Program-made: the position numbers and the translations under genes
In this document: positions 11,928 through 29,934 of the stretch, piece after piece
Numbering within the stretch: position 1 is the first letter of the stretch
Layout: each line of letters begins with the position of its first letter
Source: an uncultured Eubacteriales bacterium
GTDB lineage: Bacteria > Actinomycetota > Coriobacteriia > Anaerosomatales > JAUVQN01
DNA length: 43,412 bases
Direction: 5' to 3'
NCBI GenBank assembly: GCA_964406675.1
Contig: CAYOSP010000007.1
Span: 6,096 to 49,507, forward strand
Notes under the pieces: model-generated
What the model was told of the DNA's origin: nothing
Databases searched by the model: none
What the model saw: the letters and a program-made list of their open reading frames with translations, nothing else

Positions 11928-12671
11928 GGCGTCGGTCGCCCGGCGCGACCCCTCACGCGGGACCGGCGGCCGAGCGTCGACAGCGTCCCCGGATTCGAAG
12001 CACGTCGGCGCGGTCGTCCTGATCCCCACACCATCGTCGGCCCGAAGGATGCCGTAGTGCATCCGCTCTCACCTGCTCGTCCGATAGTAGGGGCTCGCCT
12101 CGACTCGGTGACGGACGGTCCGGGCACTCACCGTTATCCGATCATCCATACAGTCTCCTTCATTCAGGTCCATATGCGTACACGAATCCACGGAATGCGA
12201 TAGGGAGGTATGACCGGTACCCGTGGATCACGGATCGCGGACAGAGCGTGTGCGGAGGATACGTGTGCGCGAGTGTGGACGATGGTCTGCGACGCGGTTC
12301 GACGCGTGTCGCGGGTGCGCCCGGCGAACGAGGATGAGCGCGCTCGCGGACGGGGCCCCTCGATGAGGGGGGTCGGCGTGCGGGACGATCCTCGGTCCGT
12401 GCGTGGCCGCCCATGAGGCCTGCGAGCCCGGATATCCGGCAGGAGTCTCCGTGTTCGTACGGTCGCCCTCACGGTCCGTCACAGACGTCCCGTGATTCAT
12501 CAAACATGGCTGCAGTTCAGGTAACAGTCGAGAAAATGCTTGAACGATGTAGGAAGATGTACGTGCATTATCGATGCGCGGAAAGCCTCGGGCCGAGTTC
12601 GGGCATAGTCTCGAGCATAGTCTCGCGCGTTGCGGTACCCGGTACCCGAGTCGAGTCTCTGGAGGGAGGTC

Positions 12672-12755
12672 GTGAACTCGAAGGGTGTTCTGCCGGATGA
12701 TCAGTTCGACGTGTGTTCGCACGACGGTCCGATTCTCGAATCGTTCAGGAGGTGA
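12672..12755 (+). CDS. Possible 27-aa leader peptide / small ORF (MNSKGVLPDDQFDVCSHDGPILESFRR)
   Basis: GGAGGGAGG at 12661-12669 precedes GTG 12672. The stop TGA lies within the AGGAGGTGA RBS of the next gene. Confidence 0.3.
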   Translation: MNSKGVLPDDQFDVCSHDGPILESFRR

Positions 12756-12758
12756 ATC

Positions 12759-13607
12759 ATGAGGAAAGCGATGTGTGCCGCCGTCGTCGTCGTTGTGGTG
12801 CTCGTCTTCGCCGCTCCGGCTTTCGCGATAGACGGCGAGACGATCCCTCACGGCGGCTACTCGGCATCGACGGATGCGTGTCTGCAGTGTCATGACATAC
12901 ATGAGTCGGCCGGCGACTACGTACTGATGCGCCAGGCGACCGTGACCGCGACCTGTGCCACGTGTCACACGATCTACCAGACCGCGCCCACCGGCGCTTT
13001 CGATCCCGGTTACTCGGGTACGGAGGCCGGCACGGCCGCGGGCGCCCAGGCCTACAAGACCGACGCGGCTAACGCGCTCACGCACGAAGGCCACCGTCTC
13101 GGTCTTGGTTCCGGCGCCTACACGTTCGCCGACGGAGTGGTCGGTGACGGTTCATATATCCCGGGAGGTACCCAGGCGCTTACCGCCATCGCGTACCTGT
13201 CCTACCCTGTGACCGACAGTGCCCTCTCGTACGCGGCGACCGACGGACTCTACTGCGCGAGTTGCCACGCGCCGCACGGCACGTTCGGGAACGTGGTGGA
13301 CGCGCTGGTGTCCCCCGCGATCCTGTCGTCCAAACCCAACCACATCGACACCGCCATCCCGATGGCCAACTGGATCGACGACGGCGGAGAGTGGTGTGCG
13401 GGGTGTCACGACAAGCGTATCGACGGGGTGGACATGGAGGGCGATACCAATCACAACCATCCGTCGGAGGCCTGCCTGACCTGTCACGGCGACGCCTTCG
13501 GCGATTCCACGCCCGACTTCCCGCATACCGGCGAGGTCGCCAACCTACTCACGCTGGAACCCGACATGCTGTGCCTGCAGTGCCATACCGAGGGCACGCT
13601 GCCGTAG
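12759..13607 (+). CDS. Secreted hexaheme cytochrome c, OmcS/CwcA-like motif layout
   Basis: Sec signal ending APAFA; six CxxCH (CLQCH, CATCH, CASCH, CAGCH, CLTCH, CLQCH); RBS AGGAGGTGA. Hexaheme status is directly visible; the family assignment is by motif order. Confidence 0.9.
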   Translation: MRKAMCAAVVVVVVLVFAAPAFAIDGETIPHGGYSASTDACLQCHDIHESAGDYVLMRQATVTATCATCHTIYQTAPTGAFDPGYSGTEAGTAAGAQAYKTDAANALTHEGHRLGLGSGAYTFADGVVGDGSYIPGGTQALTAIAYLSYPVTDSALSYAATDGLYCASCHAPHGTFGNVVDALVSPAILSSKPNHIDTAIPMANWIDDGGEWCAGCHDKRIDGVDMEGDTNHNHPSEACLTCHGDAFGDSTPDFPHTGEVANLLTLEPDMLCLQCHTEGTLP

Positions 13608-13647: not shown

Positions 13648-14211
13648 ATGAACAAGCTGAGCAACAAGATCGCGCTCGTGGCGATCGCCACCACACTGTT
13701 CGTCGTCGGTCTCGGTGCGACCGCCGTGTTCGCCGCCTTCGATAGCGGCAACTACCAGCAGTCGCATCTCGACTCGAATACGATCACCAACGCCGAGTGC
13801 ATCGGGTGCCACGGGCAGAAGGCCAACCAGCCCTCGCTCGACCCCTTCACGTTCTCGGCGCACAAGAAGCACCTGAAGACCGCGTTCCTGCGGTTCCAGG
13901 TCATGGACGACGGCTGTGGCACGTGTCATGTCTCGACCGACATCGAGCAAGGCTCGGGCGCCACGGTGAACAAGCAGGTCGACGCTGCGTTCTGTCAGAC
14001 CTGCCACGGGCAGTTCCCCGCATCACTGCACGGCGGAGAGAACCTGGCCGTGACGAGCCCGCGCGGCTGCACGGCGTCGGGTTGCCACACGGACCCGGGC
14101 GCGATCCATGCGAGCGTCGAGTACGTCAACCAGTTCTTCGTGTTGTCCAGGACCTACTGCACGAAGTGTCATGGCGGACTGCCGTTCTTCGCGGCAGAAG
14201 AGACGAACTAG
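13648..14211 (+). CDS. Exported or membrane-anchored multiheme cytochrome c (4 CxxCH + 1 CX4CH)
   Basis: N-terminal hydrophobic helix; CIGCH, CGTCH, CQTCH, CTKCH plus CTASGCH; RBS AAGGAGG. Confidence 0.9.
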   Translation: MNKLSNKIALVAIATTLFVVGLGATAVFAAFDSGNYQQSHLDSNTITNAECIGCHGQKANQPSLDPFTFSAHKKHLKTAFLRFQVMDDGCGTCHVSTDIEQGSGATVNKQVDAAFCQTCHGQFPASLHGGENLAVTSPRGCTASGCHTDPGAIHASVEYVNQFFVLSRTYCTKCHGGLPFFAAEETN

Positions 14212-14225
14212 AGGAGGTGTAGAAC

Positions 14226-14723
14226 ATGGCCATGGGATTCAAGGTCGATCTCAAGAAGTGCGTCGGCTGCAAGGTCTGCGAGATGTCGTGTAAGACCCGC
14301 TTCGATCTGCCGCTCGGCGACCGTCGTCGTCGTGTCTACACCGAGGAGACCGGTACGTATCCGGATACCTCAGTGAGATTCGTCTCGATGGCGTGCAACC
14401 ACTGCTCCAGCCCCGCATGCGTCGCTGCGTGCCCGAAGAGCGCGCTCGTCCGTGACGAGGTCGACGGAGTCGTGAAGCACGACAAGGCCGCATGTGTCGG
14501 TTGCCGCCGCTGTGAGTGGGCGTGCCCTTACGGCGCGGTCACCTTCAACAGCGAGACCGGCAAGGTAGACAAGTGCGAGGCCTGCTACCGCTACGCGGAA
14601 GGCCCCAAGTGCGTCGCCAACTGTCCCGGTGGCGCCATCGAGTGGACCGACGTCACACCTGCCGATGCCGTCACCGGTGTCGACATGACCCTGACCGACC
14701 CGAACATCGAGTTCGTCGAGTAA
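14226..14723 (+). CDS. 4x[4Fe-4S] electron-transfer subunit (DmsB/PsrB-like)
   Basis: Four Cys groups: CVGCKVCEMSC, CNHCSSPACVAACP, CVGCRRCEWACP, KCEAC...KCVANCP. No signal peptide. Confidence 0.95.
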   Translation: MAMGFKVDLKKCVGCKVCEMSCKTRFDLPLGDRRRRVYTEETGTYPDTSVRFVSMACNHCSSPACVAACPKSALVRDEVDGVVKHDKAACVGCRRCEWACPYGAVTFNSETGKVDKCEACYRYAEGPKCVANCPGGAIEWTDVTPADAVTGVDMTLTDPNIEFVE

Positions 14724-14739
14724 CAAGGAGGTGAATTCC

Positions 14740-17565
14740 GTGCAAATCACCCGTAGGACCTTCATGAAAGGTGTCACCGCCGGCGCCGCGCTCCTCGCGA
14801 TGGAGGGGCGGCTGAATCTCTTGACGTCCGGCACAGAGTCGACCCTGGCGGACACGACGCACGTCAACTACGTCTGCAAGATGTGCTCGGCCGGCTGCAA
14901 GGCGCAAGCCAGGGTCGTGGACGGTGTCGTGACCGAAGTCTTCGGCATCGACGCCAGCCAGACCGCTCGCGGTCGCGTGTGCACCAAGGGGCACTCGGCG
15001 GTACGGCTGTACAAGAATCCGCGGCGCGTCACGAAGCCGCTCATCCGTACCAACATGAGCAAGGGCCCGGGCGTCGATCCCCAGTGGCGCGAAGCCTCGT
15101 GGGACGAAGCCATGGGAGTGATCGCCGATAGGATGAAGACCGCGGTCGCGGATCACGGCGGCAAGTCCATCGTGCTGGCCATGCGTCCGAGTCCGGGCGA
15201 CGTGACCAATCGACTGGCCGTCTCGCTCGGCACGCCCAACGACATGTGTCACCACGACACGTGTTACACGAGTCAGGATCTCGCATGGGCCGTCACGGCT
15301 CACGGCGCTGATGTCGCCGGCGCCTGGACGACCTATACCGAGACGACGGACTACACGCTCGATGACGGCGCCGGCACCATCACTCGTGTCGGCGGCGGCG
15401 CCATCGAGGCCGGCGGTTACGCGTACGTGATGTACGTCGGGACCGACGGTAATCGCTACACGGACTTCGTCGAGTTCGACACCGACACCCAGGATCTGAG
15501 TGCGCCGATCGATCGTGGCGCCAAGACGCCCGAGGTGCGGAGCAAGCCGACGAAGAAGTCCGGCCGTAACTGGACGCACGACATCGCGCGTTCCAAGTAC
15601 ATCGTGGGCTTCGGCTGGGATATGCCCGGCAAGGCAAAGAACATGATGGCGCAGGACTTCCTGTATGCGATCAACGACGGCGGCGCCAAAGCCGTGCTGT
15701 TCGACCCGCGTTTGTCGAGCACCGCCGCGGCCGCCAAGAACGCCGGCGGCGAGTGGATCAAGGTCAAGCCGGGCTCGGATCTCGCTATCGCGTTCGCGAT
15801 GATGAAGGTCATCATCGGCAACGGTATCCACACGATCGACGGCGGCAACGGCCGCTGGAACAGGACCTACTGCGGCACCTATGCCGCTCCAGCCGACGGC
15901 GTCTCCGGTTTTCCCGAGCTCATCGACCACATCAAGACCAACGCGTTCGCCGGTGAGGACGGCTCGATCCCGGGCGGTCTCGGCGATGGTTCCCCTGCCG
16001 ACATCGATGCGGTGTGCGCGTGGGCCGAGACCAAGAGCGGGGTTCTTGCGGCCGACATCAAGCGTATCGCCGAGGAGTTCTCGACCGAATCCAACTGGCC
16101 CGCGTACGTCCCGAGCCACAAGCGTGACGCCGCCGGACCGAACTATCGCAACTCGTTCGAGCTGGCCCATTCGTTGGTCATACTCAACGGGCTCGTGGGG
16201 TCGCTGGACCGCCTCGGCGGTTCGGTGAAGCAGCGCCAGCACTCGACGAAGAACCTCGGCTGGCTGTGTCCGGCCCCGGACGTGCACCTTCCCACGTACG
16301 AGCGGATCGACCACCTGCATCGCTATCCGATCCAGTGGAAGATGAACAAGGGCTCGTTCCAGTACATCGCGGACGCGATCCTCGACGAGGAGCCGTATCC
16401 GATCGATGTGGTGCTCTTCCGCAAGTACAACCTGCTGGCTCTCCCCGACGCCCCCAAGTACTACGAGGCGCTCAAACGAGTCTTCGTCGTCGCCGTAGAG
16501 CTCCAGATGTCGGAGACGGCACAGATGGCCGACGTCGTGCTGCCGGAGACGTTCTGGCTCGAGGGCCGTGGCTGGGACAAGGCGACCTACTTCGCCCTGT
16601 GGCCGCAGATCATGGTCACCGAGGGCAAGATGCCCAAGCTCCATCCGAACACCGATGACTCGACCGTCGCGGGCGCCGGTCAGAAGGGCTGGCGCGACAT
16701 CCTGATGACGGCGTTCCCGAAGGCGTTCGGCGAATGGGTCAACCCCGACACCGGACATACCGTGAAGGACTTCTTCCGGATGAACGTCGGCGGAGGGACG
16801 TTCGATCCGAGCGGCACCCCGATCTACGAGGATCCTCGCGGGGCGAGCAAGGCCTACGACGACGAGGTCCTCAAGCAGCTCGGTACCGACCTCGGTGACT
16901 CGTCGCTCGCATCGGGCGGATGGAGTTACATCGCCGATCAGGCGAACTTCGCCGATGGCCTGTATCCCGCTTCGGGAGGCGATAACTTCAACCTGGTCGG
17001 CGGCACGTTCCCGGTCGATCAGAAGACGTTCGCTCCCAAGTACGGTGTCACGGGCAAGCCGGTGTACCTCTACTCACCGATGCTCGAAGCATACGGCTAC
17101 GATCCGCTGCCCGTGTGGAAGGAGCGTCGTCAGGAGAAGACGGGCGACTTCGACCTCTACATGGTCACCGATCGTCCGCCGAGCCACATCCACTCGACCA
17201 CGCAGGATCTCGATTACAGCTCCGAGATCTACGACGAGAACGTGTTGTGGATGAATCCGACGACGGCAGCGGCCAAGGGCATCGGCAACGGCGATACCGT
17301 GACCGTGGAGTCCATGTCGCGAGGCAGTGGTGGCGCGGAGCGTTCGTACCAGATGCGTGCATTCGTCACGGAGCGGCTCATGGCGGATGTCGTGTGCATC
17401 CCGCACGGCTTCGGTCACTGGAGCCGTGACTATGCCGACTACGCGAAGAAAGGCCAGAACGACGGGGATCATATCCCCACCGTGTCTGTGACGGAGATCC
17501 TCTCCGAGAACACCCCGCAGCCCGGTGCGCGGATGACCGACGTCGTTCTGAACGTGTACAAGTAG
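14740..17565 (+). CDS. Tat-exported Mo/W-bisPGD oxidoreductase catalytic subunit, most like the Psr/Phs/Srr group
   Basis: GTG 14740 after AAGGAGGTGA; Tat motif TRRTFMK; FS0 CKMCSAGC...CTKG; probable Cys ligand in TPNDMCHHDTC; DPRLSSTA, VKPGSDLA, SETAQMADVVLPE, HIHSTTQ, MNPTTA, PHGFGH. Substrate cannot be determined by eye. Confidence 0.9.
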   Translation: MQITRRTFMKGVTAGAALLAMEGRLNLLTSGTESTLADTTHVNYVCKMCSAGCKAQARVVDGVVTEVFGIDASQTARGRVCTKGHSAVRLYKNPRRVTKPLIRTNMSKGPGVDPQWREASWDEAMGVIADRMKTAVADHGGKSIVLAMRPSPGDVTNRLAVSLGTPNDMCHHDTCYTSQDLAWAVTAHGADVAGAWTTYTETTDYTLDDGAGTITRVGGGAIEAGGYAYVMYVGTDGNRYTDFVEFDTDTQDLSAPIDRGAKTPEVRSKPTKKSGRNWTHDIARSKYIVGFGWDMPGKAKNMMAQDFLYAINDGGAKAVLFDPRLSSTAAAAKNAGGEWIKVKPGSDLAIAFAMMKVIIGNGIHTIDGGNGRWNRTYCGTYAAPADGVSGFPELIDHIKTNAFAGEDGSIPGGLGDGSPADIDAVCAWAETKSGVLAADIKRIAEEFSTESNWPAYVPSHKRDAAGPNYRNSFELAHSLVILNGLVGSLDRLGGSVKQRQHSTKNLGWLCPAPDVHLPTYERIDHLHRYPIQWKMNKGSFQYIADAILDEEPYPIDVVLFRKYNLLALPDAPKYYEALKRVFVVAVELQMSETAQMADVVLPETFWLEGRGWDKATYFALWPQIMVTEGKMPKLHPNTDDSTVAGAGQKGWRDILMTAFPKAFGEWVNPDTGHTVKDFFRMNVGGGTFDPSGTPIYEDPRGASKAYDDEVLKQLGTDLGDSSLASGGWSYIADQANFADGLYPASGGDNFNLVGGTFPVDQKTFAPKYGVTGKPVYLYSPMLEAYGYDPLPVWKERRQEKTGDFDLYMVTDRPPSHIHSTTQDLDYSSEIYDENVLWMNPTTAAAKGIGNGDTVTVESMSRGSGGAERSYQMRAFVTERLMADVVCIPHGFGHWSRDYADYAKKGQNDGDHIPTVSVTEILSENTPQPGARMTDVVLNVYK

Positions 17566-17636: not shown

Positions 17637-17703
17637 CGCCCTTTCCACCACACCGTCCATCGTCACCCCGCATGCACGCCGCTTCCGAGTGAGAGGATCG
17701 ACC

Positions 17704-18384
17704 TTGACGAAGCAGACCACGGCACGGATGTCGCAACGGGCGCTCGCTCTGGCGGGAGCCGCCGTCATGTTGTCCAGGTTGTTCTGGACCCCGCTCACCC
17801 GGGACACGCTCCTCGCCATGCGGGACGGAGACGAGTTGGACCACTTGTCCGAGTTCTTCGGAGTCCTCGGGAAGGACGTCTCACGCCACGTCGCCGGGCT
17901 GAAGGATCGACTCCGGGACTCGGAGATCGGTGTGGTCGAGCGCGACCTCAACGTCGACGCCACGTATCTGTTCAAGATCGGTTTCGAGGACTTGCCCGCT
18001 CCTCCGTACGGTTCGGTGTGGCTCGAGCCGGAGGGTCTGCTGATGGGGAAGACGACCGCTTCGGTGGCGCTCGCCTACAAGATCCAGGGCGTGGAGGTCG
18101 ACACGGACACCGCGGACACCATCCCCGACCACCTCTCGCGCGAACTGGAGTTCGTCGCGCACATGTACCGGAGGTACACCGAGGCGGTGGACGCCGGAGA
18201 CGATGAGGCCGTCGAAGCGGTGGAGGAAGCGACGCGTGGGTTCTTAGACACGTATTGCTTGCCGTGGTGGCCTTCGTTCGCGACCGCCGCGGGGGAGCAC
18301 GCGCGGACGGACTTCTTTCGAACCGCGAGTGATCTGCTCCTCGAGTTGTGCGACGCGCTGACGGAGGATCGCGGGACCGCGTAG
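17704..18384 (+). CDS. TorD/DmsD-family molybdoenzyme maturation chaperone
   Basis: APPYGSVWL and IPDHLSRELEF motifs; directly downstream of the Tat molybdoenzyme. TTG 17704 has a GAGGA RBS (alternative start 17689). Confidence 0.9.
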   Translation: MTKQTTARMSQRALALAGAAVMLSRLFWTPLTRDTLLAMRDGDELDHLSEFFGVLGKDVSRHVAGLKDRLRDSEIGVVERDLNVDATYLFKIGFEDLPAPPYGSVWLEPEGLLMGKTTASVALAYKIQGVEVDTDTADTIPDHLSRELEFVAHMYRRYTEAVDAGDDEAVEAVEEATRGFLDTYCLPWWPSFATAAGEHARTDFFRTASDLLLELCDALTEDRGTA

Positions 18385-19928: not shown

Positions 19929-20642
19929 GTGCCGGACTTCCGAACGTCGCGCGACCTGATCTCGTCCATGGCCGGACGACTCGATCTCCCTGTGACGGCG
20001 GCCGTCCTACTGCTTGTGGTGCTGTCGGGTGCGGTCGCGCTCACGTGGCGTTACGTCGCTTGGCACGATCGGGCGCCGTCGGACTACTACTCGTTCCAGA
20101 TCAACAGGTGGGAACAACAGCTCGCGAAGGACTCCGAAGACCCGCTCGTGTGGTCGACACTCGGGGAACTCTACCGTGAGGCGGGACGGGAGGAGGACGC
20201 GGACGAGGCGTTCGCACGCGCACTGGAATTGGACCCATCCGACCCCGCGGCGAATCTTCGTCGCGCTCGGGCGTACGTCGAGGCGGGGGACCTGGACGCC
20301 GCTCGCGAGCACGTCGTGACCGCGCTCGAGGGTCTGCCCGAGGGCGGTCGAGCGTATGCGTACTTCCGACTCGGCGAGATCGAGGAACGGGCCGGCGACA
20401 TCCCTGAGGCGATCCGGGCCTACGAAGCCTCCGTCGCGGACCGCGACTCGTACTTCAACGCTCACTACGCCCTCGCCGGACTCTACGAGCAGGAGGGTCG
20501 TTTCGATGACGCACTGGAGGCCGCCGTCATGGCCGAACGCTTCATGCCCGGACGACCCGACCTCGTCGAGCGTATCGAGCGCTTGCGAGCGCGGGGCGCG
20601 ACGATCTCGCCCGACGTATCGCCGACCTCGGCGGGAGGGTAG
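19929..20642 (+). CDS. Membrane-anchored tetratricopeptide-repeat protein
   Basis: One N-terminal TM helix then TPR-like units (WSTLGELY...AFARALELDP, YFRLGEIEE...AYEAS, HYALAGLYE...A). Confidence 0.85.
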   Translation: MPDFRTSRDLISSMAGRLDLPVTAAVLLLVVLSGAVALTWRYVAWHDRAPSDYYSFQINRWEQQLAKDSEDPLVWSTLGELYREAGREEDADEAFARALELDPSDPAANLRRARAYVEAGDLDAAREHVVTALEGLPEGGRAYAYFRLGEIEERAGDIPEAIRAYEASVADRDSYFNAHYALAGLYEQEGRFDDALEAAVMAERFMPGRPDLVERIERLRARGATISPDVSPTSAGG

Positions 20643-20659
20643 CGGAGTTGGAGACAGGC

Positions 20660-21718
20660 GTGAGTGAACACGGGCACGACGAGAGGGGCGAGACCGCTTC
20701 GAGCAGGCGTCGCTGGTGGTGGGCGCTCGTCCTCCTCCTGTTACTCCTTCTTCTCGCGTGCGGCATCGTCCATCTGCTGTTTCCGACCCCGCGTGGGACG
20801 ACCGGGAAGAAGAGCCTGCACGGGATGCGGTTCGCGATGAGCGTGTACGGCCTTCACCAGCCCCTGGCGGTCGCCGCGGGTCCCGAGGGGGAGATCGCGG
20901 TCGCCGATACCGGCGTGCAGAAGGCGTTGCTGTTCGATCCTTCGGGCGAGTGGACCGCGCAGCTGGGTGGAGACGATCCCGAGGACAGGCTGTTCGGTGT
21001 GTACGGATTGGAGTTCCACGACGGCCGTTGGTACGTCTGTGATTGGATACTCAGGCGTATCTGGGTGTTCGACGAGACAGCGGCGCTCGTCGGTCACTTC
21101 CCCGAGGATCCCATGGCCGCCCGGTACGGCCCCGACGGTTTCTCGCCGTACGACATCGCCTTCACGAAGGATGCCGCGCTCGTGACCACGCCCACGTCGA
21201 TCGAGATGTTCTCCCTCGGGGAGTTCGAACACGTGGGCCGCTTCGGAGAGGATCGGCCCGGAGGGATCCCGCTCGCGTATCCGAACGGTATCGCGGTGGA
21301 CGATCCGGGCGAACGGGTCTACGTGTGCGACGTGCTCAACCGACGTGTGATCGCGTACGACTCCGAGGGTGGGGTCGAGTGGATCCTCGGTCGGCCGGAC
21401 GAGGACGGGGAGATAGTGAGCTTCTTCTCTCTGCCGCGAGGCGTCGAGGTGGTCGACGGAGACGTGCTCGTCTCCGACACCTTCAAGCATCGGCTGGTGC
21501 GTCTGGATGCTCGGGGCGAGTTCCTCGGCACCTACGGTGACCGTGGCGTGACGGACCTGCAGTTCAATTTCCCGGAGGGTCTCGCCGTGGCGCCCGACGG
21601 CCTGGTGTACGTAGCCGATCGTGAGAACGACAGGGTCCAGGTGGTAAGACTGGACGATCCGGTGCCCCCGACGGGCGCCACGAAGGAGAAGTGGAGTGAG
21701 TCCTTCGTTGGACAGTGA
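20660..21718 (+). CDS. Membrane-anchored NHL-repeat beta-propeller protein
   Basis: RRRWWW plus poly-Leu TM; repeats QPLAVA, SPYDIA, YPNGIAVD, LPRGVEV, FNFPEGLAVAPDGLVYVADRENDRVQV. Confidence 0.88.
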   Translation: MSEHGHDERGETASSRRRWWWALVLLLLLLLLACGIVHLLFPTPRGTTGKKSLHGMRFAMSVYGLHQPLAVAAGPEGEIAVADTGVQKALLFDPSGEWTAQLGGDDPEDRLFGVYGLEFHDGRWYVCDWILRRIWVFDETAALVGHFPEDPMAARYGPDGFSPYDIAFTKDAALVTTPTSIEMFSLGEFEHVGRFGEDRPGGIPLAYPNGIAVDDPGERVYVCDVLNRRVIAYDSEGGVEWILGRPDEDGEIVSFFSLPRGVEVVDGDVLVSDTFKHRLVRLDARGEFLGTYGDRGVTDLQFNFPEGLAVAPDGLVYVADRENDRVQVVRLDDPVPPTGATKEKWSESFVGQ

Positions 21719-22238
21719 GGTCGGCGAGCGGCGTACGCGACGGGGCGCGACGATCGTCGTCCTCGCGATCGTCGTCTTGCTGCTCCTCGCGTGCTGCTGG
21801 GTCTCGTTCCGGCCGTTGCCGGACCCCGGCGACGGCTCGCCGGGGACCGAGTCCGGGTCGGGCCGAACGCCCTCGACCGCGCCCGTCGTGATCGGGGATG
21901 TCCGCGTGGAATCGCTCCCCGACGTGGATGTCGGCCGGAAGGGCGAGGCGTGGTTGGTGTCGTTCTCGCTCGCGAGTGGGCGGGATCGCCCGTTCGCCGC
22001 GGAGCTCGCTTCGCTCGACGTCGATGGTGTGAGGATCCCCCCTCTGCGGACCGATGCGCATGCATCCCGTATCTCGCGGGCGATCGTACCCGACGCGCTC
22101 GATGCGGGCATGTCGCACGGAGTGAGTCTCGCGTTCGCCGTTCCGAAGGCCTCCGTCGAGGCGACCTTGTGCGTGGTCTTTCACGACATGGGACCCTCGG
22201 AACGGATAGAGGTCCCGGTATCGATGGGAGCCGAGTGA
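21708..22238 (+). CDS. Hypothetical membrane-anchored extracytoplasmic protein
   Basis: One N-terminal TM helix, Pro/Gly/Ser linker, beta-rich domain. Overlaps the upstream stop, and its TGA overlaps the next ATG. Confidence 0.65.
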   Translation: MDSEVGERRTRRGATIVVLAIVVLLLLACCWVSFRPLPDPGDGSPGTESGSGRTPSTAPVVIGDVRVESLPDVDVGRKGEAWLVSFSLASGRDRPFAAELASLDVDGVRIPPLRTDAHASRISRAIVPDALDAGMSHGVSLAFAVPKASVEATLCVVFHDMGPSERIEVPVSMGAE

Positions 22239-22738
22239 TGCCGACGCATGCCCGGCATACCGAGAGGAGCCGGAAGGTGTTCACGTGGGCGGTCGTTCTG
22301 GCCTGCCTCGTGTGCGTATCGTCGGCGATCGCCGTGGCCGCGGGACAGACCGAGAAGCCTGACGACCACACCGATCAGTGGCAGTGGCTCCACGGCCGCG
22401 AGTACGTGCGCGACTCGGCGAGATGCGACGGGTGCCACGAGCCGATGAGTTGTCGCACGTGTCACCTTGTCGACTACCCGCACCCGCAGGATTGGCAGGG
22501 ACGTCATGGCGCCGAGGCGCTCGCGATGCGGTTCAGAGGATGTAGCCTGTGCCATAGGGACTCGTTCTGTGACCCTTGTCACGGGGGGGTCACCATGCCT
22601 CACCCGGAGGACTATCTTCGCACCCACTCGCGCGGCGGCGATGTGATCGAAGCGTGCGGTACGTGCCACCTCTCGACGGACTGTGACGGTTGTCATGATG
22701 CGCACGCATCGCACGGATGGGGAGGCGCGTCTCCGTGA
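22238..22738 (+). CDS. Small exported hexaheme cytochrome c built from three di-heme repeats
   Basis: ATG overlaps the upstream TGA; signal peptide (AIAVAA); CDGCH, CRTCH, CSLCH, CDPCH, CGTCH, CDGCH. Confidence 0.9.
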   Translation: MPTHARHTERSRKVFTWAVVLACLVCVSSAIAVAAGQTEKPDDHTDQWQWLHGREYVRDSARCDGCHEPMSCRTCHLVDYPHPQDWQGRHGAEALAMRFRGCSLCHRDSFCDPCHGGVTMPHPEDYLRTHSRGGDVIEACGTCHLSTDCDGCHDAHASHGWGGASP

Positions 22739-23595
22739 GTCGGACACGCACACGAGGGACCCTCGGCAAGTCGCTCGTCGCGCTCCTCGCTCTCTCGGTG
22801 GTGTTCATGGCGGCGGTGCTCGTCATCGCGCTGTCGTTCCCGGCGGGGACTCGCGCCATCGGCGCTCGTCTCCAAGCCGGGTATCCGGGCATGGTATCGC
22901 CGCTCGCTTCGCTGGCTTCCGAGGTCGGATCCCTCCCGGTCGTCGTCGCCGCTCGGTGGAGGGCCCGGGTCATCCAGCCGCTCGGTCTGGCGGCCGAGCC
23001 CGACGAACGAGAAGAGCTCGCGGAGCCCGATGAGGAGCACGACCGCCTGTGGGAGGGCTGTTCCGAGTGTCATCCTCATTGGGAGAGTCGTCCGCTGCAC
23101 AGCGTGGTGTACTTCGACCACGAGACGCACACGACCGCGGGAAGCGAGTGCGCGGACTGTCACGAACCGATCGGACTCGCGCGCGATCGCGTCCCTCCGA
23201 TGCAAGGGTGCGGGTCATGCCACGAGACATGGATCCGGTCCTCGGCTTCGTGTGTCGAGTGTCATCCGCCGGGTTCCTTGTTCCACGGAGCGGAACTGTC
23301 GGGAAGCCGCTCGATAGCCGACGCGTGCGAGACGTGTCATCCGCCATCCGTCCGTCTCGCATCTCCACGTGCACACGACATGCCCGCCTTCTCGGCGACC
23401 GACGAAGCGGGCTGTGAGGTCTGCCACACCTCGAGTGGATTCTGTGACCGGTGTCATCCCGCTCCGCATCCCACGCTCTACGGGTCCGTGCACCACGAGG
23501 AGATCCGGAACGGGGAGGTCAGCATGGTAGATTGCTATCAGTGTCACGACCCGCGGTACTGTGTCGGCCGATGTCATACGAAGACCGAGCGATGA
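22735..23595 (+). CDS. Membrane-anchored multiheme cytochrome c (8 CxxCH + 1 CX3CH)
   Basis: GTGA overlap with the upstream gene; N-terminal TM; CSECH, CADCH, CGSCH, CVECH, CETCH, CEVCH, CDRCH, CYQCH, CVGRCH; FDHETH c3/c7-type motif. Confidence 0.9.
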   Translation: MSRTRTRGTLGKSLVALLALSVVFMAAVLVIALSFPAGTRAIGARLQAGYPGMVSPLASLASEVGSLPVVVAARWRARVIQPLGLAAEPDEREELAEPDEEHDRLWEGCSECHPHWESRPLHSVVYFDHETHTTAGSECADCHEPIGLARDRVPPMQGCGSCHETWIRSSASCVECHPPGSLFHGAELSGSRSIADACETCHPPSVRLASPRAHDMPAFSATDEAGCEVCHTSSGFCDRCHPAPHPTLYGSVHHEEIRNGEVSMVDCYQCHDPRYCVGRCHTKTER

Positions 23596-24521
23596 GCGAT
23601 CCGGACACGCCGAGATACCGACAGATCCACGCACTCACGAGGCTGCTGCTGCGGGTGTCCGTGATCGGGACGATCCTCGCCATGGCGGCGGGGATACTCC
23701 TGGCCGTCCAGGTGCTGTCGCGAGCCGATCGAACCGTATGCGGACCCCTGTCTTCCGGTCCTGTGACGACCGTGGTCGTCGCTCGACTGCCTGGCGGGCC
23801 CACCGAGTGGCGCTCCTACATGAAGGCCGTCGAGGTGGTCTCGCGGGTGACCGGCCGTCCCGTAGCGGTCGCGTATGCCGAGAGCACCTCGGAGCTGGAG
23901 CAGCTCCTGCGAGAGCGGCAGGACGCCTATTTCTTCTCGACGACGTACGCGTACCTGTACGCCGAGGCCGAAGGACTCGAGCCGCGGTTGATCGCCGCAC
24001 CCGTCATCCTGGGAAGGACCATGGAATCGGCCTGCGTGGTGGTGTCCGAGTCGTCCCGGTTCGAGGACCTGGAGGATCTGAGGGGGCGGCGGGTCGGTGT
24101 GTCCGATCCGAGTTCACTCGCGGGCACGGCATACCTACTTCGCCTCCTGGACGAATCCGGATACGGTACGCTCCAGGGCTTCTTCGGCTCTGTCGACGCC
24201 GGTCGTTCTCAGGATTCGAACCTGAGGGACGTGCTCGCGGGCGAGCTCGATTGCACCACGGTGAATCGCTCGCAACTCGCCGCCTACCCTGAGGACGCGT
24301 TCCGCATGATCGCACGTTCCCCCGAGTACGGCATGCCGCCGATCATGTGCGGTCCCGAGGTGAGTCGGGAGGAAGCGGACGAGGTGTCCCGGGCGCTCGT
24401 GGACCTCGAACTCGGTCGGGATACACCGATCACCGGCGCGGTGGAGGGATTCTCGGTCCCGACCCCCGACCTCTATGAGTACCCCCGAGGCCTCATGCGC
24501 TACGCGGTGGTGACCGGATGA
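23592..24521 (+). CDS. PhnD/SsuA-type extracytoplasmic ligand-binding protein (probable sensory partner of the kinase)
   Basis: ATGA overlap; N-terminal TM; DLEDLRGRRVGVSDPSSLAG and downstream P-P motif typical of phosphonate-binding-fold proteins; no permease or ATPase genes adjacent. Confidence 0.8.
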   Translation: MSDPDTPRYRQIHALTRLLLRVSVIGTILAMAAGILLAVQVLSRADRTVCGPLSSGPVTTVVVARLPGGPTEWRSYMKAVEVVSRVTGRPVAVAYAESTSELEQLLRERQDAYFFSTTYAYLYAEAEGLEPRLIAAPVILGRTMESACVVVSESSRFEDLEDLRGRRVGVSDPSSLAGTAYLLRLLDESGYGTLQGFFGSVDAGRSQDSNLRDVLAGELDCTTVNRSQLAAYPEDAFRMIARSPEYGMPPIMCGPEVSREEADEVSRALVDLELGRDTPITGAVEGFSVPTPDLYEYPRGLMRYAVVTG

Positions 24522-26098
24522 GGCTTCCCGTGGGCCCCCGGTCGGATCCGGAACGCTCCTCCGGGCGGCGTTCCGGCTCGATCGCGTACAAGCTCGTCGT
24601 CCTGACCCTGCTCGGCGAACTGGTCTTCTCACTGACCCTCGGGGTGGCGGTCGGCGTGTACGTGGCGGAGGAGATGAGGCAGCATACGTTCGCGAGCTAT
24701 AGGCACACGGCGAGCGCGATAGCCGCGAGCTTCATCCCCATGGTCATGGACAAGGATGCCGCGGCGGTCCAGATGCAGATCCAGAGTCTCGTGGAACTCT
24801 CGCCGGAGTCACGTCTGGAGTGTCTGCGTATCGTCGACGGCACCGGTCGCCTGATCGCCGAGGCCGGATCGACCGGGCCGGACTGTTGCGAAACGCAGCG
24901 ATCCGAAGGCCTGGCGGGGTGGCTCGAAGCGGACATCATCGCGTCCCCCCTCTCGGTGAACGATGTCGAGCTCGGTACCGTCACCGCTCAGTTCGAGGCG
25001 GTCCCCCTCTCCGAGACGCTGTTCCCGGCCGTGCTCGTGTCGCTGATCGTGATGGCTTCCGTGAATCTGGTCTCCGTTCCCTGGGTAGCGTGGTTGTCCG
25101 TACGTCTGTTGTTGGAGCCGCTCGCTCAAGTCCAGGACGCCGCGGACGGTCTCTCCGCGGGCGAGAGGGACATCGACGTCGGCGTGGAACGGAACGACGA
25201 GATCGGTCGCCTGGCCCGGACCCTCGATGATCTCGCGGGTCAACTGAAGCGACGCGAGGCGGAACGATCGCGTGCGCTCGCGCGAACACGTGAAGCTCTA
25301 GCGCTCGAAAGGCGCGCGCGAGATGAGCTCCAAGAGATGTCTCGGATGAAGTCCGACTTCATGGCGGTCGCATCGCACGAACTGAAGACGCCTCTCGCTG
25401 CGATCAGGATGTATTCCGAGTTGCTCTCGGAGAGGGACGACATCACCGAACGAGAGGATGTCGGCGAACTCGTGAGCGGGCTCCGTGCCTCGGTCTTCAG
25501 GTTGACATCCATCACCTCGGATCTGCTGGATTCCGCGATGCTCGAGCGAGGGATCATGCCGCTCACTCGCGCGAGCATCGATCTGGTGCAGGTAGCCGGC
25601 GAAGCCGCCTCGGACGCGAACCGTCTCGGTGAGGCGCGAGGGATCGAGGTCGGGTTCGAGACGGAGGTGGACTCCCTCCCCGTGTACGGTGATGCGGTGC
25701 GCCTGCGTCAGGTGATAGACAACCTCACCTCGAATGCGATGAAGTTCTCGTTCGATGGCATGCCGGTCGATGTGAGGTGTCTGAAGGACGAGGATCAGGC
25801 GGTGGTCGAGGTATGCGATCGGGGCACGGGGATCGATCCACGTAAAGCCGAACGCCTGTTCACCCTGTTCGGGCGGCTCGACTCAGCGGACAATAGGAGA
25901 ACCGCCGGACTCGGCCTGGGACTCGCGATCAGTGCACGCATCGTCGAGGCGCACGGGGGGACGATCACCTGGCGCTCTCGGGACGACCTCGACGAGACGG
26001 TGTTCCAGGTGCGTATCCCATCGATGGACGGATCCCTGGAGATATCGCGCTGCGAGGTGCTGATCCTGGACGGGGAGGGTGGTCGAGATGGCCGATAG
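24518..26098 (+). CDS. Membrane sensor histidine kinase (2 TM, HAMP, HisKA, HATPase)
   Basis: HAMP (RNDEIGRLA), H-box ASHELKTPL, N-box NLTSNAMKF, G1 DRGTGI, G2 GLGLGLAI. Confidence 0.95.
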   Translation: MRLPVGPRSDPERSSGRRSGSIAYKLVVLTLLGELVFSLTLGVAVGVYVAEEMRQHTFASYRHTASAIAASFIPMVMDKDAAAVQMQIQSLVELSPESRLECLRIVDGTGRLIAEAGSTGPDCCETQRSEGLAGWLEADIIASPLSVNDVELGTVTAQFEAVPLSETLFPAVLVSLIVMASVNLVSVPWVAWLSVRLLLEPLAQVQDAADGLSAGERDIDVGVERNDEIGRLARTLDDLAGQLKRREAERSRALARTREALALERRARDELQEMSRMKSDFMAVASHELKTPLAAIRMYSELLSERDDITEREDVGELVSGLRASVFRLTSITSDLLDSAMLERGIMPLTRASIDLVQVAGEAASDANRLGEARGIEVGFETEVDSLPVYGDAVRLRQVIDNLTSNAMKFSFDGMPVDVRCLKDEDQAVVEVCDRGTGIDPRKAERLFTLFGRLDSADNRRTAGLGLGLAISARIVEAHGGTITWRSRDDLDETVFQVRIPSMDGSLEISRCEVLILDGEGGRDGR

Positions 26099-26849
26099 GA
26101 TGAAGACGGAGGTGCCCGAGCATCCCCGGATCCTCGTGGTCGATGATGATGCCGAGTTGCTCAGGGCTGTTCGACTCTCGCTCGCCGCGGCCGACTACGA
26201 CGTACTATGTGTCGGCAGTTCCGTAGAAGCGCTGCCGGTCATCCGTCGGACGAACCCACATCTGATCGTCCTGGACGTGATGATGCCGGACGTCGACGGA
26301 TGGCAGATCCTCAGTGCGGTGCGCCAGGAGCCCGCGCCGGTCTCCGGTGCGCTCGTCCTCATGCTCACGGCGAAGGACTCCTTGGAGTCCAAGGTGACCG
26401 GCTTCACTCTGGGCGCCGACGATTATCTGGTCAAGCCGTTCAGCGTGCAGGAACTCCGCTTGCGGGTGGCGGCGTTGCTGCGCAGGTACGGAACCAGTGA
26501 TCGGGCCGGGTCGAGAGCCACGTTCACGGTGGTCAACGGCGCATCGGGTCAGGTCTTGCTCGCCGCGGACGACGTCTTCTACTTCGACGGTGTCCGGAAC
26601 TACTCCTACGCACACACATGGGACGACAAGCGTCTGTGCAAGCTGCGCCTACATGAGGTGGAAGAGGCCGCTCCGAACCACTTCATGCGTGTCCATCGCT
26701 CGTTCATCGTCAACGGCATCCACGTCCGTGGTGGACGCTGGGTCAACAACTCTTCCTACCACCTGGTCCTCGCGGACAAGGACAGGACGGAGATCCCGGT
26801 GAGTCGGCGGGTGACCGCGGACGTTCGACGAGAATTGGGACTGAGTTGA
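26088..26849 (+). CDS. Response regulator, REC + LytTR DNA-binding domain
   Basis: VVDDD, LDVMMP, MLTA, DDYLVKPF; LytTR signatures FMRVHRSFIVN and IPVSRR. Confidence 0.92.
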   Translation: MADRMKTEVPEHPRILVVDDDAELLRAVRLSLAAADYDVLCVGSSVEALPVIRRTNPHLIVLDVMMPDVDGWQILSAVRQEPAPVSGALVLMLTAKDSLESKVTGFTLGADDYLVKPFSVQELRLRVAALLRRYGTSDRAGSRATFTVVNGASGQVLLAADDVFYFDGVRNYSYAHTWDDKRLCKLRLHEVEEAAPNHFMRVHRSFIVNGIHVRGGRWVNNSSYHLVLADKDRTEIPVSRRVTADVRRELGLS

Positions 26850-27813: not shown

Positions 27814-29934
27814 ATGCAGGAAGGGATTCGCATGGTGAAGCCGTTCCACGGCGCCGCGTACGCCGCACTCGTCACGATCGTGTTAGCCGCCCTCGTCGTG
27901 AGTGGCGTTCCTTCAGCCGCCGCGACCTCGGACGTCGAACGACTCCCGATCCCCGGTCCGCAGGTCTACGTGGCCGTCGGCGACGAAGCGTTGTACTTCG
28001 GGTCCGATGAGGACGGGGACGGGGATCACGATCTCATAGGCAAGATGCTCGGGACCGCGGGGACCACCGTGATCGCGAGTGGTCCCGGCAACCAGTGGCA
28101 ACCCGCCGTGAACGGCAGAGTCCTCGTGTATGTCGATCAAGCCCCTCCGGATCCAGGCGGAGGCGCGCCGGTGACCTCCAGGGTCGTCGCTCGGGATCTC
28201 ATCACTGGTGCGACCCGGGAGCTCTCCGTGGAAGAGGGGTTGCGATCGAGCCCGACGGTTCACGGCGGACGGGTCGCGTGGGTGGAGGTCGACGAAGGGG
28301 AGAGCGGCTCCATCGTCTACTGTGACCTCGACGTGGACGACGACGGCGTGCCGGACTTCGCGGAAAGCGACGGTCCCGCTCCGTCGGCGCCTCAGGTCGT
28401 CGTCACCGGCCCCGGAGCCCGCTCGCCGAGTCTTGGGAGCGCGGGATTGGTGTATGCCGAAGAAGCGGACGGGGACGTTCGGGTGATGCGCAAGCCGGAT
28501 CCTCCGGGCGCCACGGAGGTGACGGTCGCCGGGTCGACCGGCGGGGTCTCCAAGCCTCGGCCGAGGACGTCTGGAGACCTGATCTGCTGGACCGGGAGAG
28601 CGTCCGGGATCGACAGGGTATACGTGCGCGATCTGAGTGCCGGGACGACGAAGGCGACGAGCTCGTCGGATTCGAGTTCCCGACTCCCGGTCACCGACGG
28701 GACGCGTGTCGCTTGGGTAGAGGGGTACTGGTCCGACACCCCGTCCGTGTGGGTATCGGAAGGCTCGGAGACACGGCGGCTTCACACGGCGGACGGCGTC
28801 GTCGGATCGACGAGTCTCGAGGACGGACTGCTCGCTTGGACCGAGGTCGTCGATGAGAGCACGTTGGATTCGGATGTCTTCTACCACTCGATGACAGGAG
28901 AGGACGACGGCTCCCCTGCGGATGAGGACGAGGGCATCGAGCGTCTCAGTGGCGCCACGCGCTACGACACGGCTGTCGCGATCGCCCGAGAGGCGTTCGA
29001 TCCCGGCGGCGACGGGAAGTGGCCGGGGGTCGCACACGTGGTCATCGCCTCAGGAGCCGACGACCATATGGTCGATTCACTTCCGGCCGCGGGACTCTCT
29101 TGGCTCTACGACGCGCCGCTGCTGATCGCGCATCCGGACCCCGCGAGCAACTCGGCCGCGAAGTCGGTGCTCTCGGAGATCGTGGCGGCGAACGGCTCGG
29201 TGGACCTGCACGTGGTCGGAGGCACGGCTTCGGTCAGCGACGCGGTCTACCGGGATCTGGCCGCGGTCGTTCCGGGATCCGCGACGGCCCCGGATCGGAT
29301 CGCCGGGCCCGACAGATACGCCACGGCGGTGGCCGTGGCGCGTCGGATACATGCTCGCGCGGGATCCGAGGGAAAGGCGACGCCGAACGAGGCGCTCGTG
29401 GCCGCAGCCGTCACGGACGGCAATCTGTTCGACGCGCTCGCGCTCTCCGCCTTGTCGGCGAGACGAGGGGCCCCGGTCCTACTGGTACGTCCGTCGGAGC
29501 TTCCTGAGGTCACACGGAATGAACTGGAGACCCTGGCTCCCGGTACGGTGGTGCTCGCCGGCGGTGAGGGCGCGATCTCGGACACCACGAAGCGGTCGAT
29601 CGACGCAGTGGTCCCGACCACATGCCTCCGGTGGGGTGGAGCGGACAGGTACGCGACATCCGTCGTCATCGCTCGGGAGGCGATCGCGCGCGGTTGGTTG
29701 ACGCCTCGCACGATCGGAGTCGCCGCGATGCTCCCGGACGCTTTGACCGGCGGGGGCGCCGTCGGTCGATCGGGCGGGCCGTTGCTCACCACGAGGTCGA
29801 CGTCGCTGCATCACGAAGTGGCCGGATGGATGTCGGAGAGGCGTGCCGACATCCGCCGTTGCGAGGTGTACGGAGGAGAAGGCGTGTTGTCCGACGGCGT
29901 GTTCAGCGAGATCCGCGCGCTCTTGGGGCTGTGA
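27814..29934 (+). CDS. Cell-surface protein: beta-propeller-like N-terminus + three CWB2 (cell wall binding repeat 2) domains
   Basis: Sec signal; repeats PAVNGRVLVY, PTVHGGRVAW, PVTDGTRVAW; DxDxDG motifs; CWB2 signatures RLSGATRYDTA, RIAGPDRYATA, RWGGADRYATS. Confidence 0.88.
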   Translation: MQEGIRMVKPFHGAAYAALVTIVLAALVVSGVPSAAATSDVERLPIPGPQVYVAVGDEALYFGSDEDGDGDHDLIGKMLGTAGTTVIASGPGNQWQPAVNGRVLVYVDQAPPDPGGGAPVTSRVVARDLITGATRELSVEEGLRSSPTVHGGRVAWVEVDEGESGSIVYCDLDVDDDGVPDFAESDGPAPSAPQVVVTGPGARSPSLGSAGLVYAEEADGDVRVMRKPDPPGATEVTVAGSTGGVSKPRPRTSGDLICWTGRASGIDRVYVRDLSAGTTKATSSSDSSSRLPVTDGTRVAWVEGYWSDTPSVWVSEGSETRRLHTADGVVGSTSLEDGLLAWTEVVDESTLDSDVFYHSMTGEDDGSPADEDEGIERLSGATRYDTAVAIAREAFDPGGDGKWPGVAHVVIASGADDHMVDSLPAAGLSWLYDAPLLIAHPDPASNSAAKSVLSEIVAANGSVDLHVVGGTASVSDAVYRDLAAVVPGSATAPDRIAGPDRYATAVAVARRIHARAGSEGKATPNEALVAAAVTDGNLFDALALSALSARRGAPVLLVRPSELPEVTRNELETLAPGTVVLAGGEGAISDTTKRSIDAVVPTTCLRWGGADRYATSVVIAREAIARGWLTPRTIGVAAMLPDALTGGGAVGRSGGPLLTTRSTSLHHEVAGWMSERRADIRRCEVYGGEGVLSDGVFSEIRALLGL

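Follow-up and report, generated by a model that had tools for sequence, protein, structure and literature searches.

What does a small secreted hexaheme cytochrome do at the head of a molybdoenzyme operon in a bacterium with a single membrane? The gene that raises this question lies in a stretch of 43,412 nucleotides (hereafter the window; contig CAYOSP010000007.1, positions 6,096 to 49,507) from an uncultured bacterium of the Anaerosomatales (Actinomycetota; Coriobacteriia). It encodes a cytochrome of 282 residues, here called the hexaheme, and is followed by genes for a pentaheme cytochrome (cyt187), an iron-sulfur (FeS) subunit, a molybdenum (Mo) catalytic subunit and a chaperone. An earlier reading made without database searches (the sequence-only reading) took the hexaheme for a compact relative of Geobacter OmcS and possibly a polymerizing nanowire subunit that serves a terminal reductase. 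Electron transfer across the thick wall in monoderm respiration is poorly understood, and in the available part of the source CwcA is the only wall wire proposed (PMC7911101).

We favor, with a probability of about 0.5, the reading that the hexaheme is secreted and serves, as a dedicated electron-transfer subunit, a PsrAB-type molybdoenzyme linked to cytochromes, in a monoderm, Coriobacteriia-like member of the Actinomycetota. Quinol is oxidized at the membrane by cytochromes such as NrfH, CymA and TorC, and the pairs TorC-TorA, CymA-ArrAB and NrfH-NrfA are precedents. In the relay that we propose, menaquinol would be oxidized at the membrane surface by the anchored 187-residue pentaheme, and electrons would then travel through the hexaheme, by way of its six bis-His hemes, to the FeS subunit, which would pass them to the Mo site exported by twin-arginine translocation (Tat). 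The two cytochromes, with 11 hemes together, would replace the membrane subunit of the PsrC/NrfD type. We infer the direction of flow, the quinol site and the contact between the proteins; gene order, domain content and conservation of the neighborhood are observations.

We found that the hexaheme gene does lead a molybdoenzyme operon, as the sequence-only reading had stated. Four co-directional genes follow it, with gaps of 40, 14, 7 and 123 nt, and they include those for the FeS subunit, the Mo subunit and the chaperone. The N-terminal hydrophobic segment of cyt187 (24 residues) is a probable membrane anchor. The Mo subunit matched the PhsA model with an E value of 2.7e-82 (277 bits, under the cut-off of 694) and, among solved structures, 2vpw_A ('thiosulfate reductase', E 3.7e-34) and ArrA (5.7e-23). 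No NrfD/PsrC-type membrane subunit was found among the six operon and neighboring proteins scanned or among the downstream proteins scanned. The operon documents a PsrAB-type enzyme with two multiheme cytochromes in place of an NrfD-type anchor.

The linkage between hexaheme and molybdoenzyme genes extends to other genomes. Among informative loci with a hexaheme at least 43% identical to that of the window, the FeS gene, the Mo gene or both stood alongside in 11 of 12 (L092, L093, L114, L115, L117, L118, L119, L120, L122, L129 and L145; the exception is L094). Loci on short contigs or contigs cut at the gene (L008, L095, L096, L116, L121, L123, L124, L125, L127 and L136) were left out as uninformative. 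The hexaheme and cyt187 genes were adjacent, at 55-63% identity, in L092, L093, L114, L115 and L116; the cyt187 copies of L092, L093, L114 and L115 are 58-63% identical. L114 has the gene order of the window, with FeS and Mo subunits 78% and 64% identical. The order in genomes G139 and G111 is hexaheme, cyt189 (58-59% identical), chaperone-like gene, Mo (25-37% identical), FeS and polyferredoxin, and L115 follows G139. A second clade with hexahemes 43-46% identical (L117, L118, L119, L122 and L129, plus L120 and L145, which are cut) carries a gene like cyt187, then Mo, FeS and one to three tandem hexahemes. The arrangement therefore varies (hexaheme-cytochrome-FeS-Mo, hexaheme-cytochrome-chaperone-Mo-FeS or cytochrome-Mo-FeS-hexaheme), and the Mo subunit is only 25-64% identical. 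Because the linkage is kept despite the varied order and the divergent Mo subunit, the cytochrome pair appears to be the constant part. In the two nearest clades, this constant pair stands beside a Psr-like enzyme that varies and is without a membrane subunit, and a relay is the simplest reading. A maximum-likelihood tree was made from 49 rows selected for the N-terminal motif, six CXXCH and FPH and freed of duplicates. The 10 rows linked to Mo or FeS genes all fell in two neighboring clades (4/6 and 6/8 rows), and of the 35 rows elsewhere none was linked.

Several observations weigh against the relay. L094 (genome G177) holds a close relative of the hexaheme with 12-heme and 11-heme cytochromes downstream of it. 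For distant members (30-42% identity; L001-L017 and L126-L144), neither Mo nor FeS genes lay within 8 kb, so a molybdoenzyme link is not intrinsic to the family; these members adjoin cytochrome-maturation genes or large multiheme cytochromes. The neighbors in L001 are Ahb heme synthesis genes, a dihaem open reading frame (ORF), a different transmembrane pentaheme with no detectable homology to cyt187, an NHL propeller, ResB, CcsA and HemA, and in L013 to L016 the relative lies among 8- to 11-heme cytochromes. The two or three tandem hexaheme paralogues in L119, L122, L129 and G111 are beyond the need of a simple adaptor. Moreover, cyt187 scored above no NapC/NirT, NrfH or TorC cut-off in model scans, so a role as quinol dehydrogenase would be assigned by analogy. 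Against curated quinol-dehydrogenase models, the scores were 26.4 bits with TIGR03153 (cut-off 134.2) and 17.5 with PF03264 (cut-off 24.1); in family library scans, the NrfH- and NapC-type models lay far under their cut-offs for the hexaheme.

The hexaheme is a real secreted six-heme cytochrome of an uncharacterised actinobacterial family. It starts with a signal-like segment that ends AFA|IDG, which leaves a mature protein of ~259 residues (~26 kDa), close to the ~260 claimed beforehand. Every motif listed in the sequence-only reading was present in the claimed order: PH31...C41LQCH45DIH48, VLMRQATVTATC66ATCH70, EGH112, IPGGT (134-138), LYC166ASCH170APH173G, GEWC213AGCH217, NH234P, C239LTCH243, FPH256 and LC272LQCH276. 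It had also noted that motif 5 lacks a His at +3 and that FPH might substitute; in the family CLTCH is followed by GD, and the His of FPH256 is conserved in 83/83 members. The protein matched Pfam Paired_CXXCH_1 (PF09699) in three stretches with 65.4 bits (gathering cut-off 20.6).

Relatives with a named source come from metagenome-assembled genomes (MAGs) of Coriobacteriia, Actinobacteria and Thermoleophilia. Of 7759 candidates from a word-indexed search, 179 proteins matched with E<=1e-3; when the 50%-identity representatives were searched exhaustively, there were 258 matches with E<=1e-3, of which 108 reached 1e-10 and 34 reached 1e-30. Matches in the ESM Atlas were generic Paired_CXXCH clusters only. 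When metagenomes were scanned, the single protein gave no match and alignment A3 gave matches; the runs holding matching DNA were microbial-mat metagenomes of one study, and no RNA run was among the matches listed.

The family has more conserved histidines than six bis-His hemes call for. Alignment A1 comprises 83 of 120 listed matches, those left out being mostly short or partially covering rows. Six CXXCH motifs were present in 76/83 rows, five in 4, four in 2 and seven in 1, and all twelve motif cysteines and six motif histidines were invariant or nearly so. Seven further histidines were kept: H31 (80/83), H48, H112, H173 and H256 (83/83 each), H195 (81/83) and H234 (82/83). Nearly all members, the window protein among them, end in LP. 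With seven conserved non-motif histidines for six hemes, full ligation within one chain would be possible. The available part of a preprint describes a filament subunit as having an unsatisfied heme that needs a His in trans, such that one extra His makes the subunit self-satisfied (bioRxiv 10.1101/2025.10.22.684050); by its count of exactly two His per heme, the family, with 13 for six hemes, falls outside. The 13 histidines thus lean against an obligate His-swapped polymer. They are no proof against polymerization, because the conserved residues are candidate ligands only. The His at +3 after motif 1, which the sequence-only reading had read as the inter-subunit ligand of OmcS filaments, is indeed retained (H48). 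Its proposed meaning is not supported: a +3 His is a hallmark of Paired_CXXCH_1, seen also in the modules of 6r2q_A, so its retention is not diagnostic of ligation between subunits.

Two close paralogues in alignment A3, P0023 and P0024 (55-58% identical), keep DFPH and have lost the heme-5 CXXCH (...DC...SCH instead) and the entire heme-6 tail. P0023 and the full-length P0008 have a longest contig of equal length (20235) and may be neighbors, and P0023 and P0024 could be degenerate copies or specialized end subunits. Tandem hexahemes lie at L119 8070-10771, in L122, L129, L127 and L123, and in G111 contig C30 (L093 1-1622).

The resemblance to OmcS depends on the part of the protein that is compared. 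A phmmer search with the single hexaheme sequence gave no OmcS match among PDB entries at E<=10. For the family profile, OmcS ranked first in the PDB (6ef8_A, 36.1 bits, E 4.8e-8, a local match), followed by 6r2q_A (4e-6), 6qvm_A, 7tfs_A (5.5e-5) and 9yuq_N (1e-3). In the available text of the preprint, 9YUQ is a filament of an OmcE homologue from Desulfuromonas soudanensis (bioRxiv 10.1101/2025.10.22.684050). The OmcS score came from the heme-3 to heme-4 segment of the profile alone, which matched OmcS 134-250 and again 299-406. We take 6r2q_A to be the decaheme MtrA (the table labels it otherwise) and 7tfs_A to be OmcE; with these assignments, nanowire subunits make up three of the top five matches. 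With the N-terminal two-heme module (A2, 21 sequences), 6r2q_A ranked first (1e-8) and OmcS had an E value of 0.031, in a collinear but weak alignment (profile 14-90 to OmcS 8-132). With the heme-5/6 module (A5), OmcS was absent from the 50 best rows; the best real alignment was to a paired module of 6r2q_A, which points to the conserved DFPH as the remnant of a former CXXCHxPH motif. The heme-free linker between hemes 2 and 3 (A6, with EGH and IPGGT) had 0 PDB matches at E<=10.

Foldseek returned OmcS as its only match, and still the predicted fold of the hexaheme was not superimposable on OmcS. The OmcS motifs that the sequence-only reading had given were partly borne out: CEGCHTMH, LHCSSCHDPHG, SEWCANCH, NCLSCHRAH and LCNKCH could be read in the aligned OmcS segments, and FH, LLQGAT...CLNCH, KGH, APGGT and RHP did not appear in the segments returned. 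Its claim of likeness to OmcS is supported by the profile and Foldseek rankings and not by the single sequence, the C-terminal module or the linker; an OmcS-type fold is not supported. Judged from sequence, the hexaheme resembles OmcS weakly. As a separate matter, tblastn matches in Gram-negative bacteria (L030-L080) were considered as OmcS and rejected; they carry 10 to 43 hemes and repeats of a CXXCHxPH module. Such cytochromes reach E values of 1e-5 to 1e-7, so these values are cheap for paired-CXXCH sequences. A 401-genome sample from the phylum of G201 gave 7 matching genomes (E<=1e-7), none with a full-length hexaheme, and of 14 control genomes only E. coli gave matches.

The comparison with Thermincola CwcA, which the sequence-only reading had suggested, was positive for one half of the protein. 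A Thermincola ferriacetica MAG has a 523-residue hexaheme ORF (L035:7614-9182) located 1.8 kb after a membrane cytochrome with 12 CXXCH. We treat this ORF as CwcA-like and infer that it is Tfer_0075 because of the organism, the six hemes and the position after the 12-CXXCH cytochrome. A1 aligned with it over 117 columns (hhalign 98.1%, E 8.6e-14) covering hemes 1-3, PGG included, and with a 19-member profile of CwcA-like proteins from Bacillota over 41 columns (98.6%). The alignments stop at heme 3, and the C-terminal halves differ. We regard homology of the N-terminal three-heme half, as judged by these alignments, as firm. The CwcA-like profile itself reached OmcS with an E value of 3.8e-3, and a single CwcA-like sequence found no OmcS in the PDB. 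In the available text, CwcA was modeled as an OmcS-like wall wire from 18% identity to OmcS, was insoluble on expression and was never purified in soluble form (PMC7911101).

Thermincola holds closer kin of the window family than CwcA. Besides the CwcA-like gene, the T. ferriacetica MAG (G203) has a 368-residue ORF that matches the whole family profile (3-152 and 167-288), as well as two heptaheme relatives of ~400 residues; sites in G203 are C25:289275-290198 and C3:55808-57781.

The most prominent alternative to the relay is that the hexaheme polymerizes head to tail in the manner of OmcS and CwcA, with His supplied in trans, to make a wire through the Gram-positive wall that would feed a surface-located Mo reductase or external acceptors. 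This proposal is partly compatible with the relay. The OmcS, 7tfs_A and 9yuq_N matches of the profile speak for it, as do the homology to a CwcA-like protein that was itself modeled as a wall wire (PMC7911101, available text), the tandem paralogues, the cytochrome cluster of G177 and the 15 ORFs with at least three CXXCH in the window genome; besides, a monoderm would need some means of retaining a 26-kDa cytochrome that is cleaved and soluble. We nevertheless consider a wire unlikely. The similarity to OmcS is confined to the neighborhoods of heme motifs, the CwcA-OmcS link is itself weak, the number of conserved His departs from two per heme, and the two closest clades, with their strict link to Mo/FeS genes, better fit a stoichiometric subunit. 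A prediction of a two-copy complex (residues 24-282, with A1) gave a median of 0.25, with the mark at 0.42, and is neither for nor against binding. Less likely still is the specific form in which the ~26-kDa hexaheme, alone or with tandem paralogues, polymerizes to a wall wire that joins the pentaheme to a surface Mo reductase acting on insoluble sulfur, arsenic or iron compounds. If such a wire were formed, it would be the first to be devoted to a catalytic enzyme, in contrast to nanowires that serve minerals or electrodes.

Electrons might also flow the other way, from a Mo dehydrogenase or oxidase (of the formate, arsenite or thiosulfate type) to the hexaheme as a cytochrome-c3-like acceptor, which would hand them on either to the quinone pool or to Fe(III) outside the cell. 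The FeS subunit also matches FDH3 beta (E 2.6e-26) and the Mo subunit Fdh-alpha (8.2e-33), the window genome is rich in multiheme cytochromes, and a cluster of multiheme and molybdopterin oxidoreductase genes is proposed, in the available part of the source, for Fe(III) reduction by a cultured Anaerosomatales Fe(III) reducer (PMC9686372). We think this direction quite improbable, since the Mo subunit, in families and structures alike, matches reductases best: PhsA scores 277 bits and Fdh-alpha 113, and 2vpw and ArrA come next. Finally, the hexaheme could be a general component of extracellular electron transfer or a terminal metal reductase that exchanges no electrons directly with the Mo enzyme and merely has a regulon or island in common with it. 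Distant clades with no Mo enzyme nearby would fit, as would the other members of the island (an NHL propeller, a TPR protein, two further cytochromes and a two-component system) and the sporadic occurrence of the gene, which was found in 4/146 genomes of the order at E<=1e-20 and in 5/201 genomes of the class sample at E<=1e-10, the window genome included each time. The translationally tight operon and a linkage that was rearranged yet kept make this very unlikely.

Coordinates of the operon and of neighboring features are collected in the table.

Table. Features of the window, numbered from its first nucleotide
Feature	Position	Strand	Basis or remark
Shine-Dalgarno sequence AGGAGGTG	12747..12754	+	4 nt 5' of ATG; strong; direct sequence reading
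Hexaheme c-type cytochrome, 282 aa	12759..13607	+	ORF, motif reading, Pfam, family alignment
Predicted Sec signal peptide of hexaheme, residues 1-23	12759..12827	+	cleavage after AFA; from sequence alone
Heme motifs of hexaheme	12879-12893, 12954-12968, 13254-13268, 13395-13409, 13473-13487, 13572-13586	+	
cyt187, 187-aa pentaheme cytochrome (4 CXXCH + 1 CX4CH)	13648..14211	+	ORF, family scan
Four-cluster FeS subunit, DmsB/PsrB-like, no signal peptide	14226..14723	+	TIGR02951, E 2.4e-42, under cut-off
Mo-bis(pyranopterin guanine dinucleotide) (Mo-bisPGD) catalytic subunit, 944 aa, PhsA/PsrA-like	14731..17565	+	Tat signal RRTFMK
TorD/DmsD-family Tat proofreading chaperone	17689..18384	+	Nitrate_red_del, E 9.2e-20
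Polyferredoxin, 441 aa	18409..19734	-	convergent with operon; tblastn matches in L093, L115
Gap 5' of operon, ~700 bp	12063-12758		no convincing ORF
TPR protein	19929-20642		weak CcmH-type TPR match
NHL beta-propeller, membrane-anchored	20648-21718		
Multiheme ORF, 6 CXXCH	21791-22738		true start probably internal
Multiheme ORF, 8 CXXCH + 1 CX3-4CH	22717-23595		
Periplasmic-binding-protein-like gene (Phosphonate-bd), HAMP histidine kinase, LytTR response regulator	23451-26849		flank the cytochrome/Mo island
706-aa protein	27814-29934		three CWB2 cell-wall-binding repeats, E 2.4e-43

The polyferredoxin gene lies downstream of the FeS gene in related operons. The gap 5' of the window operon is long for a 1.9-Mb genome; it had no Rfam match at E<=1, and a simple scan found no sigma-70-like promoter in it. 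An NHL propeller follows cytochromes in L001 too, and a beta-propeller lipoprotein is a typical member of nanowire gene clusters according to the available part of the preprint (bioRxiv 10.1101/2025.10.22.684050). The Phosphonate-bd protein, HAMP kinase and LytTR regulator could form a regulatory unit dedicated to the island; in G139 (L092 5793-9037), three ORFs that resemble this trio in size (306, 522 and 251 residues) adjoin the related operon. The CWB2 protein fits a Gram-positive wall or S-layer.

Among hexahemes of the CwcA/OmcS type, the family represents an uncharacterised branch from actinobacteria, here with a new operon architecture, and it offers a compact, well-alignable actinobacterial relative of CwcA. 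In titles and abstract openings we found no paper tying OmcS or such hexahemes to Coriobacteriia, and no report of a cytochrome filament from a Gram-positive organism. Because the function of the hexaheme can be tied to a specific set of partners (pentaheme, FeS subunit and Mo enzyme), biochemical reconstitution is feasible.

Compared with OmcS of Geobacter sulfurreducens (PDB 6EF8), the hexaheme likewise has six hemes in one chain and the successive contexts xLxCxSCHxPHG and xWCAxCH. It differs in its length (~259 residues and 407 in OmcS), in the lack of a +3 His at heme 5, in its monoderm host and in the location of its gene in a Mo-enzyme operon. With the CwcA-like proteins the family has in common Gram-positive hosts and the N-terminal module H-G-[GE]-Y...CXXCHxxH...CXXCH...PGG...CxSCHxPHG, in which the P-G of PGG is invariant in both. 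The CwcA-like proteins are 500-700 residues long, with an insertion of ~170-260 residues between hemes 3 and 4; their heme 5 has a +3 His (CLTCHFAH) and their tail reads S-ALKRY-N...C-KCH, whereas the window family has CLTCHGD... at heme 5, DFPHT and a terminal LP. Exactly six non-motif His are invariant in the CwcA-like family, and seven are conserved in that of the window. The relay that we favor most resembles the TorCA(D) and CymA-ArrAB systems as generally known, in which, as in the window, a Tat-exported Mo enzyme and a TorD-type chaperone go with an anchored multiheme c cytochrome instead of PsrC or DmsC. In contrast to those systems, the window operon has two cytochromes (5 + 6 hemes) and not one, neither of them reaches the NapC/NirT, NrfH or TorC cut-offs, and the operon includes an FeS subunit.
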